Made by a program: the position numbers and the translations under genes. Below the pieces are notes generated by a model. The model was not told the DNA's origin. It worked only from the letters and a program-made list of their open reading frames with translations, and did no database searches. This document shows, piece after piece, positions 13,516 to 39,844 of a DNA stretch of 40,015 nt. This DNA is from a virus: positions 1 through 40,015 of the IMG/VR virus record IMGVR_UViG_3300045988_093525; one strand, 5' to 3'. Each line of letters opens with the position of its first letter. Position 1 is the stretch's first letter.

Positions 13516-14140
13516 GTTCTTTTATCCTGTTTATGATGAGCCTGTAGTGATTAAGAGTGATGTCAATGGGGACTATGCTGCTGTTGGTATCCCTCGGCGA
13601 TACTATGACATGGATTTTGAGTGGTTACGTAAACATGGCAGCTTTCCTAAAGAAAATTCAGAAGCATATGCTGTAGTAAAACATTATGTGGATAACTTAG
13701 AGGCAAATCTTAAAAGTGGCAAAGGATTGATTTTAAGGGGCCCTGCTGGCACTGGAAAGACTTCTATAGCAGTTAGTATTCTGAAAGAGGTTCTAGCGCT
13801 AAACCGGGGCTGTATGATGATTTCTATGCCTAGTCTATTGGACATTATGCTCACATTATCTAGGGGTGATAGAGTTGCGTTTTTAAATTATGAACAAAAG
13901 CTCAGGAATATTCCGCTGTTGCTGTTAGATGATTTTGGAGCGGAGTATTCTAAATCTGATTGGGTGCACACAAAAGTTGAAAGCATTATTATTGGCCGAT
14001 ACCATGATATGAAGCCAGTTATACTGACAACTAATTATAATAACGACCAAACAAAAGACCATTATAGCGAACGAGTGATTGATAGATTACGTGGCAAAGA
14101 TTATGAAGAGGCTATATTTTGGGGAGACTCGCACCGATGA
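13415..14140 (+). CDS. DnaC/IstB-like AAA+ helicase loader
   Basis: Walker A LRGPAGTGKTS and Walker B LLLLDDFGAE. The start is uncertain. TTG 13415 (AAGGAGGTG 12 nt upstream) would overlap the preceding gene by 101 nt. ATG 13502 is the alternative. Confidence 0.85.
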   Translation: MEQVNITEMLETFLEKRKKSTGKQNTRESMVKDEFFYPVYDEPVVIKSDVNGDYAAVGIPRRYYDMDFEWLRKHGSFPKENSEAYAVVKHYVDNLEANLKSGKGLILRGPAGTGKTSIAVSILKEVLALNRGCMMISMPSLLDIMLTLSRGDRVAFLNYEQKLRNIPLLLLDDFGAEYSKSDWVHTKVESIIIGRYHDMKPVILTTNYNNDQTKDHYSERVIDRLRGKDYEEAIFWGDSHR

Positions 14141-14535
14141 AGATTATCCTACGTTGTCAGTTTCGATTTAGAAAGAAAACCCATGATAGATTCCCAACAC
14201 TGAATGAGTACATTGACTGTGAGCGTGGTTCGACAATTGCTGCGGCAGCAATGAAGAAAAAATGCACAGAGCAGGTAAGGGTGCAATGCATCGAGCAAAG
14301 CATACCTCCTGTTGCTGGCAAGGTAGACTTATTGTTTGAATGGCATTCATCAACTAGACATGATCCGGATAATGTGGATTTTGCCAAGAAGTTTATTTTA
14401 GATGGATTGCAATTAGCTGGTGTACTAGAAAACGATAACAGGAAATTCATAGGAACGATGGCCGATGAAATCATAACTGATACAGAAAATTATGTGATTC
14501 TACATCTTTCAGAGCATATGAGTATATTCCTGTAG
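14137..14535 (+). CDS. rusA: RusA-like Holliday junction resolvase
   Basis: ATG 14137 overlaps the previous stop (ATGA). HDPDNVDFAKKFILDGLQLAGVLENDNRKFI resembles the RusA D-x-D-N...K...D-x-L core. Confidence 0.65.
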   Translation: MKIILRCQFRFRKKTHDRFPTLNEYIDCERGSTIAAAAMKKKCTEQVRVQCIEQSIPPVAGKVDLLFEWHSSTRHDPDNVDFAKKFILDGLQLAGVLENDNRKFIGTMADEIITDTENYVILHLSEHMSIFL

Positions 14536-14637
14536 TAATAAATGCCTCTAGGATTGAAATATTGGTGCCTAGACGGCGTTTTAAAATATTATGCAATAAA
14601 AACCATTACGAGCTATTTTTAAACGAACGGAGAGCGA

Positions 14638-14970
14638 ATGAGGAAAAGATTAGTATATGTGGCTCATCCTTATGGGGGTGAGAAGAGCAACAAAGAAAAA
14701 ATAGATATGATTATGAGTGAGTTGGTGTTAAGTGATACAAATCATGATTATGTATCGCCAATTCACAATTACGGATTTATGTATTTAACTGGTGATGATT
14801 ACCAGAAGGGCTTAGACATATGTTTAGGCCTACTGAATCATTGTGACGTGTTAATATTGTGTCCTGGTTGGGAAAATAGCCGGGGGTGCAATGGTGAGTA
14901 CGAATATGCTCAAAAGCATGGTAAGGCGATATTCACGTTAGATGAATGGAAAGCCATGAACATAATTTAA
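14638..14970 (+). CDS. Nucleoside 2-deoxyribosyltransferase-fold (DUF4406-like) protein
   Basis: 110 aa. LVYVAHPYGG near the N-terminus and CPGWENSRGCNGEYEYAQKHGKAIF near the C-terminus fit the small NDT-like family pattern. Confidence 0.5.
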   Translation: MRKRLVYVAHPYGGEKSNKEKIDMIMSELVLSDTNHDYVSPIHNYGFMYLTGDDYQKGLDICLGLLNHCDVLILCPGWENSRGCNGEYEYAQKHGKAIFTLDEWKAMNII

Positions 14971-15043: not shown

Positions 15044-15580
15044 ATGTATTTGAATGAATACGAAATTGAAAAAATCACTAGGTTGGCCACTGAGGTGGCC
15101 ACAAAAACCTACTATGAATTAGCCAAGAAAGAAAATGCACAGTTAGGTCGTAAACTTCGACACAACACGATCAAGCTGCTTAAGCATTATAGTCAGTTAC
15201 AGTCATACGTAGACAATGCTATCACGGATTCGACACAAGCCGAGGATATATGGCTCAATGAACTGTTAATTGATATGTTTGACGATAAAAGCATTGTGAA
15301 AGTAAATGCGATTGTTAAATCTAAAGAAAAAACAGCATTGATGATGCGACATGTAAATAACATGCTCGATATCTATGCTGAAAAGTGTAGCGCAAAGCAA
15401 TTTAAGTATTGTGAGTGTATGCGCAGGTATTATATTGATGGAGAAACATTAGAAGAGATTGCAGAATCATTCCCTGAAAAGCCCGATGTGCGTACTATTC
15501 ATAGGTATGTTGCAAGGGGAATAGAAGAACTATCTGTACTTCTATGGGGCGTGATTGGGCTTAATACAAAATTGTCATAA
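15044..15580 (+). CDS. Late-gene transcriptional regulator (sigma70 region-4 / ArpU-RinA-like)
   Basis: 178 aa. The C-terminal LEEIAESFPEKPDVRTIHRYVARGIEELS is a region-4-like HTH. The gene lies between the replication and packaging modules. The start may be TTG 15050, because GGGGGAG abuts ATG 15044. Confidence 0.6.
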   Translation: MYLNEYEIEKITRLATEVATKTYYELAKKENAQLGRKLRHNTIKLLKHYSQLQSYVDNAITDSTQAEDIWLNELLIDMFDDKSIVKVNAIVKSKEKTALMMRHVNNMLDIYAEKCSAKQFKYCECMRRYYIDGETLEEIAESFPEKPDVRTIHRYVARGIEELSVLLWGVIGLNTKLS

Positions 15581-15608
15581 AACTGTCATAGACATGTCAT
15601 TCTTGACA
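15573..15608 (+). promoter_or_regulatory. Three helically phased TGTCAT direct repeats plus an inverted TGACA half-site
   Basis: TGTCAT at 15573-15578, 15584-15589 and 15595-15600, exactly 11 bp apart. TGACA at 15604-15608 forms TGTCA-N4-TGACA with the third repeat. Confidence 0.6.
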
Positions 15609-15617
15609 ATTTATAAT
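15589..15617 (+). promoter_or_regulatory. Candidate late promoter (-35 TAGACA, 17 bp, perfect -10 TATAAT)
   Basis: TAGACA at 15589-15594 and TATAAT at 15612-15617. The TGTCAT repeats overlap and flank the -35. Confidence 0.5.
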
Positions 15618-15686
15618 GATAGTGTGAGTTAATAGGGAAACAAATTAATCTCTCTCGACAAAGTGAATACCTAGAACACTAAAGCA

Positions 15687-15725
15687 AAAAGACCGCTTAA
15701 TCTATACGATTGGGCGGTCTTTTTG
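15687..15725 (+). terminator. Strong intrinsic terminator between the late promoter and the first late gene
   Basis: AAAAGACCGC (15687-15696) pairs with GCGGTCTTTT (15715-15724). The stem extends further through TTAATC/GATTGG (with G-U pairs). A T-run follows. Confidence 0.8.
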
Positions 15726-15758
15726 TATCCAAATTTTAAGAAAGTGAGGTGAATACGA

Positions 15759-15947
15759 TTGACTGATGTGTATTGTGAAAAGAGACGATGCCTAAATAAT
15801 GTTAAAGGTTGGTGCAAGGCTAATGGAATTCATATTGATCATATGTGTAAGTCGTATGCACCATCTCATTCGTTAGTAAAAACAAAAACCGCAAAGGTAC
15901 ATAAGGAATGCGGTAAATATAAGCAGAATAAAGGAGTGCTGAAATAA
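15759..15947 (+). CDS. Small Cys-rich (DUF1540-like) protein
   Basis: 62 aa, TTG start 7 nt after GTGAGGTG. The pattern is C-x5-C-x8-C...C. Confidence 0.5.
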   Translation: MTDVYCEKRRCLNNVKGWCKANGIHIDHMCKSYAPSHSLVKTKTAKVHKECGKYKQNKGVLK

Positions 15948-17347
15948 TGGCAGATAACATTACGATACATTGCGCGTATACAGATTTGGTAGATATTGCT
16001 TCAGTTATTCCTAATCCTAGAAATCCTAACCACCATAGTGATAAGCAAGTAGAGTTGTTAGCCAAAGTGATAAAAGCACAAGGTTGGCGAGCTCCGATTA
16101 CGGTGAGTAACCGTTCTGGGTTTATTGTAAGAGGCCATGGGCGGTTAATGGCTGCACAATTATTAGGACTAGATACTGTTCCAATTGATCGGCAGGATTA
16201 TGAAAGCGAAGCTGCAGAGTATGCAGACCTGATTGCAGACAATAGAATCGCCGAATTATCAGATATCGATAATACCTTATTAGGAGAGTTATTAGCTGAT
16301 ACGGGAGATTTTGCTGAGTTTACAGGTTATTCTGACGATGATATAGCTAGCCTATTAAACCAGGTAATGGCAGATGAAGTTCATGAGGATGATTTTGATG
16401 CAGAAGAAGCTATCAAATCAATTAAAGAACCTATGACAAAGTTCGGTGATGTATGGATGCTAGGTGAGCATATGTTATTGTGTGGCGACTCAACAAAGAC
16501 AGAATCTCTTGATTGTCTACTGGGGGGGGACGTTGTTGATATGGTATTTACAGACCCACCGTATAACGTGGCTTATGAGGGAGGTACAAAGGAAGCTCTT
16601 ACCATTCAAAACGATAATATGTCAGATGCTGAATTTGATATATTTCTTGATGATGTATTCGCTTTGGTTAACAAAGCATTAAAACCTGGTGGAGCGTTTT
16701 ATATCTGTCACTCTGATAGCTGTGGTGGTCAATTTAGACGTGCGATTCGAGATAATGATTTACTTATCAAACAATGCCTGATTTGGGTTAAGAATACATT
16801 TGTAATGGGGCGCCAAGATTACCAGTGGAAACACGAACCAATTCTATATGGATGGAAACCTGGTGCTAGTCATAAGTTTTATGGTGGCAGAAAACAGTCT
16901 ACTGTGATTGATGACAATCTTCCTCTTGAAATCGAAAAAGATGGAAATGACTATATTCTTCATTTTTCTAATGAAACGGACCATATTGTAGTAAGAGTGC
17001 CTGGGTATGAAATAGAAGTTAATAATGGTACTGAATGTGATTCTATATGGCGATTTAATAAGCCATTAAGAAATGGTGAACATCCGACGATGAAACCGAT
17101 TGCATTATGTGCACAGGGAATTAAGAACTCATCAAAACCTGGAGAACTTGTATTCGAACCGTTTGGTGGCTCAGGGTCTACTTTGATTGCCTGCGAACAA
17201 ACAAAGCGCAGATGTAGATGCATTGAATTAGACACTAAATACTGTGATGTAATAGTAAAACGATATATCGAATTTATTGGAAGTAATAAAAATGTATATG
17301 TGATTAGAAATGGGCAACGCTTAGAATTTTCTGAGGTTGCCCAATAG
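15947..17347 (+). CDS. ParB-like nuclease domain fused to a DNA N6-adenine/N4-cytosine methyltransferase
   Basis: 466 aa. N-terminal ParB/Srx-like region (NPRNPNHHSDKQV...IVRGHGRLMAA). Motif IV FTDPPYNV is followed by motif I EPFGGSGST, which is the beta-class order. Confidence 0.88.
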   Translation: MADNITIHCAYTDLVDIASVIPNPRNPNHHSDKQVELLAKVIKAQGWRAPITVSNRSGFIVRGHGRLMAAQLLGLDTVPIDRQDYESEAAEYADLIADNRIAELSDIDNTLLGELLADTGDFAEFTGYSDDDIASLLNQVMADEVHEDDFDAEEAIKSIKEPMTKFGDVWMLGEHMLLCGDSTKTESLDCLLGGDVVDMVFTDPPYNVAYEGGTKEALTIQNDNMSDAEFDIFLDDVFALVNKALKPGGAFYICHSDSCGGQFRRAIRDNDLLIKQCLIWVKNTFVMGRQDYQWKHEPILYGWKPGASHKFYGGRKQSTVIDDNLPLEIEKDGNDYILHFSNETDHIVVRVPGYEIEVNNGTECDSIWRFNKPLRNGEHPTMKPIALCAQGIKNSSKPGELVFEPFGGSGSTLIACEQTKRRCRCIELDTKYCDVIVKRYIEFIGSNKNVYVIRNGQRLEFSEVAQ

Positions 17348-17370
17348 TTTTTGTAAACAACATGAATTGA

Positions 17371-18159
17371 GTGAGGTGGTGCTGCCATGTGACGACACAT
17401 CAGCAAGCGCACAAGGACTACCTAAATGGCATGAAGTATAAGGATATTGCCGATAAGTATGGGGTGTCATTGGCGACTGTTAAATCGTGGAAGACACGCT
17501 ATGGGTGGTTCCGCGATACATCAAAAAAAAGTATGCATACAAAAAATAAAAGTACGCATACTAGAAAACGAGGAGGCCAGCCTGGTAATCATAATGCATT
17601 ATATAATGCTGGCGGTGCGCCTAAACAAAATCAAAATGCTGTTAAGCACGGATTACTAGCGAAATATTTACCAAAAGAAACTTTAGACATTGTGATGGAA
17701 GTCGAGGAATCAAGCCCTATTGATATTCTATATATGAACATAAAAGTTCAATTTGCACGTATTATCAGAGCACAAAAGCTGATGTATGTTGAGGGAATAG
17801 AAGACCATACACGGGTCACTGAAAACAGGACAGAGGTTACTATTGACCCTGCTAAAGGGACCAGTCGTTCTGTTACTAAAACAGATAAGGTCATTTCTTC
17901 GGTAGACAAAGAAGTAGTATTTATGAAGGCCCAATCAGTGGCAATGGCCACTTTAACTAAAATGATTCAGCAGTACGACGTTATGTGTCGCAGTCCGCTA
18001 GCTACAGACGAACAACGAGCAAGAATTGATAAGATTCGCGCTGAAGTTGCCAATATTTCTATGGGGAATCGGACGATTGATGTTAATGTAAATCACAATC
18101 CATTAGCTGGCTTAAGTACTGAAGAAATAAGAAAAGTTATTGAAAAAGAGGATAGATAA
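17371..18159 (+). CDS. terS: Terminase small subunit
   Basis: N-terminal HTH (YLNGMKYKDIADKYGVSLATVKSWKTRYGW). It lies directly upstream of TerL. The start is GTG 17371 or GTG 17389 (GAGGTGGTG RBS). Confidence 0.8.
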   Translation: MRWCCHVTTHQQAHKDYLNGMKYKDIADKYGVSLATVKSWKTRYGWFRDTSKKSMHTKNKSTHTRKRGGQPGNHNALYNAGGAPKQNQNAVKHGLLAKYLPKETLDIVMEVEESSPIDILYMNIKVQFARIIRAQKLMYVEGIEDHTRVTENRTEVTIDPAKGTSRSVTKTDKVISSVDKEVVFMKAQSVAMATLTKMIQQYDVMCRSPLATDEQRARIDKIRAEVANISMGNRTIDVNVNHNPLAGLSTEEIRKVIEKEDR

Positions 18160-18160
18160 T

Positions 18161-19585
18161 ATGGAATTCACACCGGCTGTTGTACAGGAGTTCAAATATG
18201 AACTTGCGAGACGTGAATTCTTTTATTTTTGCCATCTATTAGAGGGTGACTTTTATGAATACGACCGTCAATATTTAGTTGATTTGTGCGATGCATTACA
18301 AGATTTTTATGAGGGCGATATCTACAATGTTCTTATTCTTAATTTACCGCCACGGCATGGGAAGAGCCGCACAGCCCAGAACCTGTCAAAATGGGTACTT
18401 GGTAAAAACCACAAAGAAAAGGTGATGACTGGATCTTACAATGCGACTTTATCCAAGACATTTGCCAAGGGAGTGCGAAATGCAATCAAGGAAGTTAAAG
18501 CTGATGAGAATATAACCGTTTTCTCAGATGTATTCCCTGGAGTTGAAATCAAAGAGGGCGATGGAGCAGCTCACATGTGGTCTTTGAAGGATGGCTATAA
18601 TAGCTATTTGGCTACATCCCCTGACGGTTCATCTACAGGTTTTGGTGCAACGCTCTTAATAATTGACGACATCATTAAAAACGCTGAAGAAGCCTATAAT
18701 GAAAACGTCAAAGAGTCTCATTGGAGTTGGTTTACAAATACAATGCTCTCTCGATTAGAAGAGGGAGGGAAGATTATTATAATCATGACACGATGGGCTT
18801 CAGATGATTTGGCCGGGCGTGCAATCGAGCATTTCAAAGATGATCCTAAGTTCAAATCTAAAGTGATTATGATGAAAGCGGTTCAGGAGGATGGCAGTAT
18901 GCTGTGCTCGGATGTACTATCAAAAGATAGTTATCTATCTAAAATTAGAGCAATGGGCGAGGATATTGCATCAGCCAATTACCAACAAGAGCCTATTGAT
19001 GTCAAAGGTAGGCTATACTCTTATTTCAGTACATATGAGGATGTTCCTAGGGATGATAAAGGATATCCACTATTCTCTGCAGTGAAGGCTTATGTGGATT
19101 CTGCAGATACTGGCGACGACTTCTTATGCGCTATTGTGTATGGAGTATATAAAGACTACGCATATGTGTTAGATGTATTGTATACAGATGCGCCTATGGA
19201 AATTACTGAAGAACAAACTGCAGATTTAATAAATCAAAATAGTGTAAATATTGCTGATATAGAGTCTAATAATGGTGGACGTGGTTTTGCTAGAAATGTT
19301 AAAAGGATACTAAAAGAAAAGTATCCAGGTAATCGGACAAAGATTACTGCATTTCATCAAAGTAAGAATAAGGAAGCTAGAATATTATCAAATTCAACAC
19401 AAGTTATGGATTATGTTTTATTCCCAGTTAACTTTAAGGACCGCTGGCCTGAATACTATACATCAATGTATAAGTATCAACGCAAAGGTAAAAATGCACA
19501 TGATGATGCTCAAGACGCAACGACAGGCGTTGTTGAACGTTTGAATGCGCCTGTTATTAAATCCATCAATTCTGATATTTATTAG
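18161..19585 (+). CDS. terL: Terminase large subunit
   Basis: ATG 18161 lies 1 nt after the terS stop (AAGAGGA RBS). Walker A LPPRHGKS, Walker B LLIIDD, and a C-terminal nuclease-like acidic motif HDDAQDA. Confidence 0.9.
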   Translation: MEFTPAVVQEFKYELARREFFYFCHLLEGDFYEYDRQYLVDLCDALQDFYEGDIYNVLILNLPPRHGKSRTAQNLSKWVLGKNHKEKVMTGSYNATLSKTFAKGVRNAIKEVKADENITVFSDVFPGVEIKEGDGAAHMWSLKDGYNSYLATSPDGSSTGFGATLLIIDDIIKNAEEAYNENVKESHWSWFTNTMLSRLEEGGKIIIIMTRWASDDLAGRAIEHFKDDPKFKSKVIMMKAVQEDGSMLCSDVLSKDSYLSKIRAMGEDIASANYQQEPIDVKGRLYSYFSTYEDVPRDDKGYPLFSAVKAYVDSADTGDDFLCAIVYGVYKDYAYVLDVLYTDAPMEITEEQTADLINQNSVNIADIESNNGGRGFARNVKRILKEKYPGNRTKITAFHQSKNKEARILSNSTQVMDYVLFPVNFKDRWPEYYTSMYKYQRKGKNAHDDAQDATTGVVERLNAPVIKSINSDIY

Positions 19586-22765: not shown

Positions 22766-22795
22766 AAGCACTTGCTTATGCAGGTGCTTTTTTAT
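22766..22795 (+). terminator. Intrinsic terminator between the packaging/portal block and the head genes
   Basis: AAGCACTTGC (22766-22775) pairs with GCAGGTGCTT (22780-22789), with one G-U pair and a 4-nt loop, then TTTTTATTT. Confidence 0.75.
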
Positions 22796-22902
22796 TTGCC
22801 TTTTTAGTATTGAAGGCGTAAAAGAACAAGACCGCAGTCGTGAGGTGTGGCTCACGAAAATAAAGCGAAGAGGGAAGGTTTATTTTACAGGAGGTCATAC
22901 AG

Positions 22903-26627: not shown

Positions 26628-27017
26628 ATGAAAAAAATCACATGTGATGTATTTAATACTGGCGAAACAATTTATTTTACGATTGGTCGAATTGCTGAAC
26701 TTGAACAGTTATGGGGTGAACCTATTTTTAAAGCAGTTCAAGCTGGGGCAATGACATTCCAACAATTAATCACTGCATTTGTTGTCGGAATGAAGCACGA
26801 AGGTCGTAAACGCGATTATATTTACTACCAAGAAAAGCTACAACAATTATTCGATGAAGGCGAGGTTCAATATTTAGAACTTGTACAGTTAATTGTAAAA
26901 GCATTAATCGGTAGTGGTGTATTTGGTAAGGCTGCGTACTATGCATCATTTCCTGAAGAAGCTGACGAAAAAGCACAATCTGAGGTAGAAGCAGAGGAAG
27001 CAGAAGCAAAAAACTAG
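26628..27017 (+). CDS. Tail assembly chaperone (G-like, zero-frame product)
   Basis: 129 aa with an acidic C-terminus. It ends with a slippery heptamer and lies directly upstream of the tape measure. Confidence 0.8.
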   Translation: MKKITCDVFNTGETIYFTIGRIAELEQLWGEPIFKAVQAGAMTFQQLITAFVVGMKHEGRKRDYIYYQEKLQQLFDEGEVQYLELVQLIVKALIGSGVFGKAAYYASFPEEADEKAQSEVEAEEAEAKN

Positions 27018-27349
27018 AAGGGGGCTATACAGCCCCCTCTTTTAATTTATGGATAACAAAGGCCGAGCGTATGGCGTATGGTCCACTCAATTTGAAGCCT
27101 TGGGAGTTTATGAAACTAAGCCCTATGGAATATTACAAACTGGTGGAAGGGTACGAATTGCGAATGGAGATTGAGGACCGCAGACAGGCTTATTTTACAT
27201 GTATAATGACGAATGTTCATATTGCTGGCAATAAGCGATTGAAAGTCGAGGACATCATGAAGCAATTACACCCTATGACCTTGGCACAACGCAAGACGGA
27301 GGAAAAGTTATTCATGGAAGAATTCAGACAGGCGGGAGGTGAGATATAA
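26628..27349 (+). CDS. Tail assembly chaperone GT-like fusion produced by a -1 programmed frameshift at 27008-27014
   Basis: After a -1 slip on A_AAA_AAC, the reading frame from 27014 (cta gaa ggg ggc tat aca gcc ccc tct ttt aat tta tgg ata aca aag gcc gag cgt ATG...) is open. It is in phase with track ORF 27071-27349 (27071-27014=57). Confidence 0.7.
27008..27038 (+). promoter_or_regulatory. -1 frameshift signal: slippery A_AAA_AAC plus a GC-rich stem-loop
   Basis: The heptamer at 27008-27014 is in X_XXY_YYZ phase with the zero frame. After a 4-nt spacer comes an 8-bp stem AGGGGGCT (27019-26) / AGCCCCCT (27031-38) with a 4-nt loop. Confidence 0.7.
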
Positions 27350-38186: not shown

Positions 38187-38717
38187 ATGCAAGAATTAAC
38201 GAATTTCATGAGCGAGGCTTGGCGGACATTGACGGATTCGTTCGTTCTAAAAGCCTTGCTTGCTATCATCGCCGATGTAGCGATATATATGATTGGCTTA
38301 AAACATGTGCAGGTGCTAGGCATATTCATATTACTGGTATTTCTAGACCTCATTACAAAATGGGCGGCTATATCATATCAAATGCTTGTTGATATGGGGG
38401 CAAATGCTGACAATCTAACAGCATTAGACAAATATATAGCTATTCCAGCTGCATGGGGAAAGGGGTTAATATCCTCAAAGCATATGCGCAAGCCTTTCGT
38501 TACAAAAGTCTTAACATATTGCCTTGCTACTGGCGCCGCATGGTGCTTTGACTATATGGCAGGTCAATATGCTTTCGCCGTAAATATTGTGTGGTTGTAT
38601 CTAGGCTCGGTAGAGTTATTGAGCATACTTGAGAACATGCGAGACGGCGGGAATACTACCATATCTGGCTTGCTTGACGTGGTTCATGCAAGAGTAGATA
38701 TGATTTTAAAAAAATAA
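38187..38717 (+). CDS. Holin (Phage_holin_4_1-like, multi-TM)
   Basis: 176 aa with about four hydrophobic helices. It contains the family-like motifs FLDLITKW and VELLSILENMRDGG. It lies upstream of the endolysin. Confidence 0.75.
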   Translation: MQELTNFMSEAWRTLTDSFVLKALLAIIADVAIYMIGLKHVQVLGIFILLVFLDLITKWAAISYQMLVDMGANADNLTALDKYIAIPAAWGKGLISSKHMRKPFVTKVLTYCLATGAAWCFDYMAGQYAFAVNIVWLYLGSVELLSILENMRDGGNTTISGLLDVVHARVDMILKK

Positions 38718-38732
38718 TATAGTGTTGTTTAT

Positions 38733-38764
38733 GCCACGCTCACGATATATGGGCGTGGCTTTTA
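38733..38764 (+). terminator. Possible weak terminator/hairpin between holin and endolysin
   Basis: GCCACGC (38733-39) pairs with GCGTGGC (38753-59), 13-nt loop, then TTTTAT. Confidence 0.4.
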
Positions 38765-38789
38765 TATTGCAGAAACAGAGGTGCATATA

Positions 38790-39800: not shown

Positions 39801-39838
39801 AGGGCACTTACTATAAAAGTAGGTGCCCTATTTTTTTT
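39801..39838 (+). terminator. Rho-independent terminator ending the late/lysis operon
   Basis: AGGGCACTTAC (39801-11) pairs with GTAGGTGCCCT (39819-29), with one G-U pair and a 7-nt loop, then A-T8. Confidence 0.85.
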
Positions 39839-39844
39839 GCAGTT

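Follow-up and report, generated by a model that had tools for sequence, protein, structure and literature searches.

Late regulators of the Ltr class, grouped by Quiles-Puchalt et al. in 2013 into RinA, ArpU, LtrA/Sigma70_r4, LtrB/DUF1492 and LtrC proteins (PMC3753634), bind direct repeats just distal to their own genes and are needed for transcription of terS (PMC3753634, PMC3152322). In the RinA system, a terminator has been inferred between rinA and terS that stops transcripts from an upstream plasmid promoter when RinA is lacking (PMC3152322). Here we analysed positions 15044-15758 of a 40,015-nucleotide stretch of viral DNA (IMG/VR record IMGVR_UViG_3300045988_093525, hereafter the window), which is a temperate siphophage integrated in Veillonella. 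The locus comprises a regulator gene, three phased operator repeats, a promoter and a strong terminator placed before the first late gene, and is probably the early-to-late switch of this phage. That it is a late control region, as an initial annotation of the sequence had proposed, is supported by the analysis described here; the named class concerned, the Ltr/ArpU late activators, was already known (PMC3753634) and did not appear in that annotation. The elements of the regulator gene and its operator-promoter are as follows.

15044-15580, plus strand: late regulator gene, 178 aa, ~20 kDa, the last early gene, PHROG 1558, with a C-terminal sigma-region-4-like helix-turn-helix (HTH)
15573-15578, plus strand: repeat R1, TGTCAT, overlapping the stop codon (TCA TAA, 15576-15580) and followed by an A-tract
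15584-15589, plus strand: repeat R2, TGTCAT, at -40 to -35, its final T being the first base of the -35 hexamer
15589-15594, plus strand: -35 hexamer TAGACA, 5/6 consensus positions, made by the R2-R3 spacer
15595-15600, plus strand: repeat R3, TGTCAT, at -29 to -24, within the 17-bp promoter spacer
15603-15608, plus strand: perfect TTGACA within the promoter spacer and 3 bp short of TATAAT, pairing with R3 as an inverted repeat
15612-15617, plus strand: -10 hexamer TATAAT, invariant in 145 distinct relatives
15618-15625, plus strand: GATAGTGT, containing a second -10-like hexamer, TAGTGT (15620-15625), at an 8-bp offset, with a TG supplied by 15617-15618

The three TGTCAT copies were found as first described, 11 bp apart and with the first on the stop codon of the regulator gene. 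TGTCAT occurs 18 times on the plus strand of the 40 kb, and three copies at 11-bp phase would be expected ~1.6e-6 times in the window. The inverted repeat TGTCA-N4-TGACA was likewise confirmed at 15595-15608, and the perfect TTGACA at 15603-15608 that overlaps it had been overlooked. This hexamer is kept in the window's own clade, reads TTTACA in BCJA1c and is not found elsewhere; as a real -35 it was rejected, having no -10 at 16-18 bp and no conservation outside the window's clade. The 5 bp past R1 (15579-15583 in the window) are A-rich (AAAAC, AAATG, AAAGA and the like) in almost every lineage of the set described below and the spacer past R2 differs, which suggests a conserved bend or minor-groove contact at the R1 flank.

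Repeats and protein vary together. Among 169 close relatives the operators fall into two classes, with all three repeats either TGTCAT-like or TGTCCC/TGTCCT. Residue 153 of the regulator, which lies in the recognition-helix motif R-T-x-[H/K]-R-Y, is His in 84/84 TGTCA loci and Lys or Arg in 85/85 TGTCC loci, while a sister clade (P0030, 50% protein identity) combines Gln153 with three copies of TGTCGT. Residue 178 also separates the classes, but its codon overlaps R1. Three sites and one helix residue changing in concert form the pattern of a specificity switch, and the covariation strongly suggests that residue 153 reads positions 5-6 of each repeat, an association that is correlative and to which linkage could contribute. 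Comparison of the sequences also strongly suggests that the regulator binds R1-R3 via its HTH and acts on sigma-A polymerase at the late promoter. The earlier proposal of a sigma-region-4-like regulator recognising the repeats is thus borne out, both by residue 153 and by an operator architecture shared by 18/20 lineages.

The regulator matches PHROG 1558, a family of 'unknown function', at E = 9e-45, and its other matches are weak (YlxM/UPF0122, E = 0.007; sigma70-extracytoplasmic function (ECF), E = 0.024). An exhaustive profile-free search of a 50%-cluster library recovered 310 cluster representatives at E <= 1e-3, nearly all of them 165-200 aa long and matching over their full length. Members of this family occur in phages of Veillonella, Clostridioides, Clostridium, Listeria, Enterococcus, Bacillus, Brevibacillus, Faecalibacterium and Latilactobacillus. 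A metagenome scan with alignment A3 returned only relatives of at least 93% identity and zero new lineages, and scans of viral contigs with P0031 and P0034 gave no hits. A set of 51 diverse members includes some that reach Sigma70_r4, Sigma70_r4_2 or DUF1492 and one that its source names 'ArpU family'; the DUF1492 cut-off is exceeded by relatives P0134 and P0242, and that of Sigma70_r4_2 by gp23 of phiCDKH02. The AlphaFold2 (AF2) model of the window protein is all-helical (predicted local distance difference test score, pLDDT, 83) and ends in a three-helix HTH. Its best fold neighbours in PDB are ECF sigma factors (E 0.4-0.6, none significant), its viral fold matches are proteins labelled Sigma-70 region 4, transcriptional activator or DUF1492, and a PDB sequence search with the regulator returned generic HTH domains only. 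The sigma-region-4-like character, weak in the window protein, is therefore corroborated by its relatives and by the fold matches. Judged by these sequence relationships, PHROG 1558 probably branches off distantly within the Ltr late activators (RinA, ArpU, DUF1492). The ATG at 15044 directly adjoins the ribosome-binding site GGGGGAG, and TTG 15050 is better spaced and a possible alternative start. In databases, several relatives are given a length of 201 aa, with an upstream start that a stop codon closes off in the window.

The locus shares with the described Ltr systems a regulator that is the last gene of the early cluster and lies just upstream of the packaging genes, direct repeats immediately past its stop codon, and a C-terminal HTH that sets specificity, for which the window evidence is the correlative covariation of residue 153. 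Some relatives of the window protein also pass the DUF1492 and Sigma70_r4_2 thresholds. It differs in that its repeats overlap the core promoter, whereas the repeats of Phi13 lie at -107 to -42 and those of TP901-1 Alt at -76 to -32 (PMC13123087). It also differs in its fixed geometry, its second -10-like element and its conserved leader terminator, none of which was found in the searched Ltr literature.

The promoter TAGACA-17-TATAAT (15589-15617) matches 11/12 consensus positions and is the best sigma-70-type match within 12-24 kb. The consensus -10 named in the initial annotation was confirmed; its description of the -35 as poor did not hold in the window, where TAGACA matches at five of six positions, and held family-wide, the -35 position being unconserved. 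Diversity of the -10 and GATAGTGT is ~0 across the 145 distinct sequences, compared to 0.27 at the codon position of the regulator gene that varies most, presumably the third. For a broader comparison we used 20 independent lineages, at ~25-50% protein identity, from isolated phages and genomes, among them Bacillus BCJA1c, Clostridioides phiCDKH02, C. perfringens PhiS63, Listeria LWP01, Faecalibacterium FP_Brigit, Latilactobacillus TMW 1.46 P2, Enterococcus EFC-1, Brevibacillus Emery, Dehalobacter, Anaeromusa and others. Each was scored against dinucleotide shuffles for three similar hexamers at 11-bp phase, followed by 11 bp and TAnnnT. The architecture R1-N5-R2-N5-R3-N11-(-10) was significant in 18/20 lineages (p <= 0.034, often < 0.002), BCJA1c, PhiS63, LWP01, EFC-1 and Emery among them, and in nearly all lineages the distance from R3 to the -10 is exactly 11 bp. 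L195 and L196 were weakly significant (p = 0.02) and L207 and MT835491 non-significant, and none of these fits the architecture cleanly. The hexamer varies by lineage (TGTCCC, ATGAT, TGACAA, TGGTGT, GGCGAC, TGCAAA, TTGCAC, TGTCTT, GGACAA) while the geometry is fixed.

Between R2 and R3, a good -35 is found in few lineages (TAGACA in the window, TTGACA in L197) and is absent in most, and no position of the alignment is better conserved across lineages than the TG of the extended -10. The conserved TG and the mostly missing -35 together point to a host sigma-A promoter of the -10 or extended -10 type, on which the sequence geometry suggests that regulator protomers flank the -35 position on one DNA face. 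A comparable arrangement is that of lambda cII, whose direct repeats TTGC-N6-TTGC flank the -35. At cII-type promoters, as here, the direct repeats are spaced by about one helical turn on either side of the -35, on the face opposite sigma region 4, and a good -35 is generally missing; cII belongs to an unrelated protein family and has two repeats instead of three, and the window-type -10 is consensus or TG-extended. A second TAnnnT, typically G-A/G-TAGTGT, lies 2 nt past the -10 in 12/20 lineages (binomial P ~1e-14). In the window it occupies -4 to +2 relative to the predicted start, and TAGTGT may be a pause or loading element. One relative, L208, carries three tandem ~100-nt copies of the complete operator-promoter unit at ~1740-2000. 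In each of them, three phased GGACAA-like repeats are followed by 11 bp and TGaTAATAT-GG-TATCAG, and a single terminator lies past the third copy.

The regulator could instead be a phage-encoded ECF-like alternative sigma factor, with TGTCAT-N17-GATAGT as its own -35 and -10. Although R3 and GATAGT are exactly 17 bp apart in several lineages, the conserved promoter elements are of the housekeeping type TGnTATAAT, and three equally conserved phased sites would be unexpected for a -35. Some relatives are annotated as 'putative sigma factor', and the protein has weak whole-length fold matches to AlgU, sigmaE and BldN (E 0.4-2); yet Sigma70_r2 is missing both from the 25 families listed across the 51 relatives and from the seven scanned singly, matches to ECF profiles are limited to the region-4 part of the relatives, and the modelled N-terminal half consists of long helices unlike sigma region 2. 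A sigma factor is thus highly unlikely.

Downstream of the promoter, the following elements separate the predicted start from the late genes.

15624-15730, plus strand: predicted leader transcript, ~105 nt, its start inferred from the -10 and its 5' 60 nt unstructured
15684-15730, plus strand: intrinsic terminator, stem 15684-15726 of 19-20 pairs with A/U extensions, then a T-run
15759-15947, plus strand: first late open reading frame (ORF), 62 aa, Cys-rich, PHROG 33034, TTG start

The very stable terminator that had been predicted was confirmed. Its core, GACCGCTTAATC paired with GATTGGGCGGTC, lies in a stem with a free energy of -28.2 kcal/mol (z = -9.4, 0/200 shuffles as stable), which begins ~60 nt past the predicted start and is followed by five T's and then G; the first late ORF starts 33 nt past the stem. 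A hairpin and T-run are found at the leader position in 162/164 close relatives; the stems are of at least four unrelated sequences, and compensatory pairs occur within one type. Across lineages, 15-16/19 have a hairpin and T-run between the late promoter and the first late ORF, with hairpin onset from 21 to ~230 nt past the -10 and strengths of -12 to -29 kcal/mol. The ribosome-binding site of the late ORF follows within ~15-35 nt of the hairpin, which leaves no room for another promoter. The likeness to the lambda Q-PR'-tR' layout, also part of the initial annotation, therefore stands: the promoter-then-terminator order recurs across lineages, and the stem changes in sequence but keeps its structure. 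When the window (15726-15760) is compared with L005, L006, L007 and L192, similarity stops right past the leader terminator and different genes follow, so that the cassette boundary looks, from the alignments, like a recombination junction. Since the downstream DNA is often a different module, the regulator, operator-promoter, leader and terminator would travel as a unit.

The leader itself might act as RNA, by put-like antitermination as the initial annotation had offered as one option, or as a functional small RNA of ~105 nt. A short terminated transcript is indeed predicted from the near-consensus promoter, but no Rfam family matched the leader at gathering score (at E <= 1, sub-threshold matches mostly overlapped the terminator hairpin), and zero known RNAs were found in the long leaders of BCJA1c and PhiS63. 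The 5' part of the leader is slightly less variable (0.11-0.22) than the most variable codon position (0.27) and its first ~14 nt are alike in several lineages, whereas beyond those ~14 nt the sequences of different lineages are unrelated and leader length ranges from ~20 to ~700 nt. The consensus fold holds the terminator hairpin and no other conserved structure. An RNA-mediated role is accordingly disfavoured and extremely unlikely.

Further terminators lie within or after the late operon. The hairpin and T-run sites noted earlier at 22766 and 38733 were confirmed, and two more on the same strand had not been listed.

22766-22799, plus strand: internal terminator-like hairpin and T-run, upstream of the scaffold gene
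27019-27048, plus strand: internal terminator-like hairpin, past the tail gene 26628-27017, newly listed
38733-38769, plus strand: internal terminator-like hairpin, between the holin-like and endolysin genes
39801-39839, plus strand: strong terminator past the lysis genes, newly listed and probably the end of the late operon

Before the endolysin gene (38716-38769), AATAATATAGTGT resembles '-10 plus TAGTGT' and is followed by a terminator hairpin within 10 nt; this likeness to the late promoter, which comes without TGTCAT repeats upstream, is possibly due to chance.

The layout recalls the lambdoid Q proteins at PR'/tR', namely lambda Q and 21 Q (PMC6606751). In both settings the late promoter directly follows the regulator gene, a sigma-region-4-type HTH recognises 6-bp direct repeats embedded in the promoter, and a short terminated leader precedes the late genes of a long operon with further terminators (PMC6606751); the Q binding element between -35 and -10 has its window counterpart in R3. 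The two differ in protein, the window regulator having no sequence or fold relation to any Q family: Phage_antitermQ matched only 1/51 relatives, sub-threshold at E = 0.005, and no Q structure was among the PDB fold matches. They also differ in geometry, as two of the three window sites lie upstream of the -35 position, and the window sites are 11 bp apart on the same face, compared to 8 bp on different faces for 21 Q (PMC6606751). The -10-like candidate of the window, at -4 to +2, is not clearly in the transcribed region. It is the parallel in gene position, HTH-bound hexamers in the promoter, short terminated leader and long multi-terminator operon that motivates a Q-like model.

We propose that the regulator, probably as an oligomer, would occupy one DNA face of the three 11-bp-spaced direct repeats and activate or stabilise RNA polymerase at the host sigma-A promoter, a well-supported step, judging by a -35 that is lost across the family, the TG extension of the -10 and experimental work on Ltr relatives. 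Transcripts would start near 15624 and meet the strong intrinsic terminator 33 nt short of the first late gene. Since no promoter lies past the leader terminator, the late genes would be expressed via read-through. The terminator would block both early read-through and the basal output of the near-consensus promoter, and polymerase starting at the regulator-occupied promoter could turn termination-resistant, as with lambda Q, with TAGTGT as a possible pause or loading site. In that case the regulator would engage the sigma-A holoenzyme held at TATAAT-GA-TAGTGT and ride with polymerase through the leader and internal terminators of the ~24-kb late operon. We regard such regulator-dependent, Q-like antitermination as plausible, with a confidence that falls somewhat short of even.

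Alternatively, the regulator may raise initiation only. Elongation would then be unmodified, and a constant fraction of polymerases would read through a leaky safety terminator that closes the early operon and keeps basal transcription low. The Ltr relatives that have been characterised are all described as activators (PMC3753634, PMC13123087), and a -35 that is missing in most lineages, with reliance on a TG-extended -10, means that activation is needed anyway; the near-consensus promoter of the window, however, would make initiation alone a poor control point there. Lineages without a leader terminator exist, but the promoter-then-terminator order holds in 15-16/19 even though the reverse is possible, as in L206 and MT835491, where the hairpin lies upstream of the operator instead. 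The window T-run of just five T's before a G fits a leaky terminator, whereas the hairpins are strong throughout their range of -12 to -29 kcal/mol, and four or five serial terminators would multiply losses before the lysis genes. Activation with constant read-through is a possible explanation, in which our confidence is limited.

Several observations weigh against Q-like antitermination by an Ltr-type protein. First, the leader terminator is absent in three lineages (L206, FP_Brigit and L209) despite an operator-promoter, so antitermination is not a universal role and the core conserved job is promoter activation. Second, the transcribed region holds no convincing sigma-dependent pause element, and a consistent -10-like one at +5 to +25 was not found: TGTATAAT is present in phiCDKH02 and TATACT in L197, and there is none in the window and several others. 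To our knowledge, the second -10-like element, at -4 to +2, is nearer the start than any known Q pause element. Third, the start site near 15624 is a prediction that rests on the position of the -10. Fourth, the window protein falls below every curated family threshold, those of all Ltr families included, and its isoelectric point of 6.45 makes it non-basic, unlike the described Ltr proteins. Lastly, a Terminator-exonuclease-resistant 5' end has been mapped 23 bp upstream of terS in the RinA system (PMC3152322), which favours plain activation in the RinA family.

The closest Ltr case is ArpU of Enterococcus phage phiFL2A (L205, GQ478084), where three TTGGCGG repeats at 11-bp phase lie past the arpU stop and TGcTAATAT-AG-TAATAT is found near 14086-14100. 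It shares with the window a tandem -10 with an 8-bp offset, has a terminator directly before the terS ribosome-binding site, and differs in that the repeats are 21 bp from the -10, compared to 11 bp in the window. The reported late start of phiFL2A, 14705, falls within the ~800-bp arpU-terS spacer (14029-14822), 2-3 nt past the 3' end of a tRNA-Arg gene (14629/30-14702/3), and because it adjoins that 3' end it may reflect processing instead of initiation. In that case, transcription that depends on ArpU would likewise start at the repeats and pass through a terminator. No paper in the searchable literature describes Ltr, ArpU or RinA proteins as antiterminators. We nevertheless put forward, as a tentative extension, that the PHROG-1558/ArpU-type Ltr 'activators' may be promoter-loaded processive antiterminators, a Firmicute/Negativicute analogue of lambda Q derived from a sigma-region-4-like fold.

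Regulator genes 95-98% identical to that of the window were found at 7 loci from Veillonella genomes and metagenome-assembled genomes (MAGs), and >160 additional close relatives came from human-associated viral and metagenome contigs. A megablast of the region against isolated phages gave zero matches. Gene order in the window runs from integrase, repressors and replication genes to the regulator (15044-15580) and then to a packed plus-strand operon, which holds the 62-aa Cys-rich ORF, a ParB-N/N6-N4 methyltransferase, terS, terL, portal, head, tail and lysis genes. Distant regulator homologs occupy the same position at the early/late junction. The neighbouring genes are listed below.

12598: DnaD-like gene, upstream of the regulator
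13415: DnaC-like gene, upstream of the regulator
14119: RusA-like gene, upstream of the regulator
14638: DUF4406 gene, upstream of the regulator
15947-19585, plus strand: ParB-N/DNA methyltransferase, small terminase and large terminase genes, the tightly packed start of the late operon

A small Cys-rich ORF (~40-75 aa, with CxxC-type motifs) is the first gene past the leader terminator in several distant lineages (window 15759-15947; L194 2184-2405; L197 ~2205-2320; L211 ~1896-2050), and a ParB-N/DNA methyltransferase gene often comes next.

While the regulator class is known, the PHROG 1558 family, its fixed promoter grammar, the tandem -10 and the promoter-then-terminator order are not described in the searchable literature, where the current explanation is limited to 'Ltr activators bind repeats'. 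Late-gene control in temperate phages of Gram-positive bacteria and Negativicutes governs particle production, lysis and transduction, and the phage satellites (SaPIs, the Staphylococcus aureus pathogenicity islands, as well as PICIs, the phage-inducible chromosomal islands) exploit the same late and packaging functions. The sequence comparisons suggest a function for a large unannotated phage family of 310 cluster representatives, the operator-promoter grammar can be used for late-promoter annotation, and residue 153 is a candidate specificity determinant. The promoter-then-terminator layout in very distant phages suggests an undescribed read-through step like that of lambda Q. If it is true that these regulators confer termination resistance, Q-like antitermination would have arisen independently in Firmicute phages.

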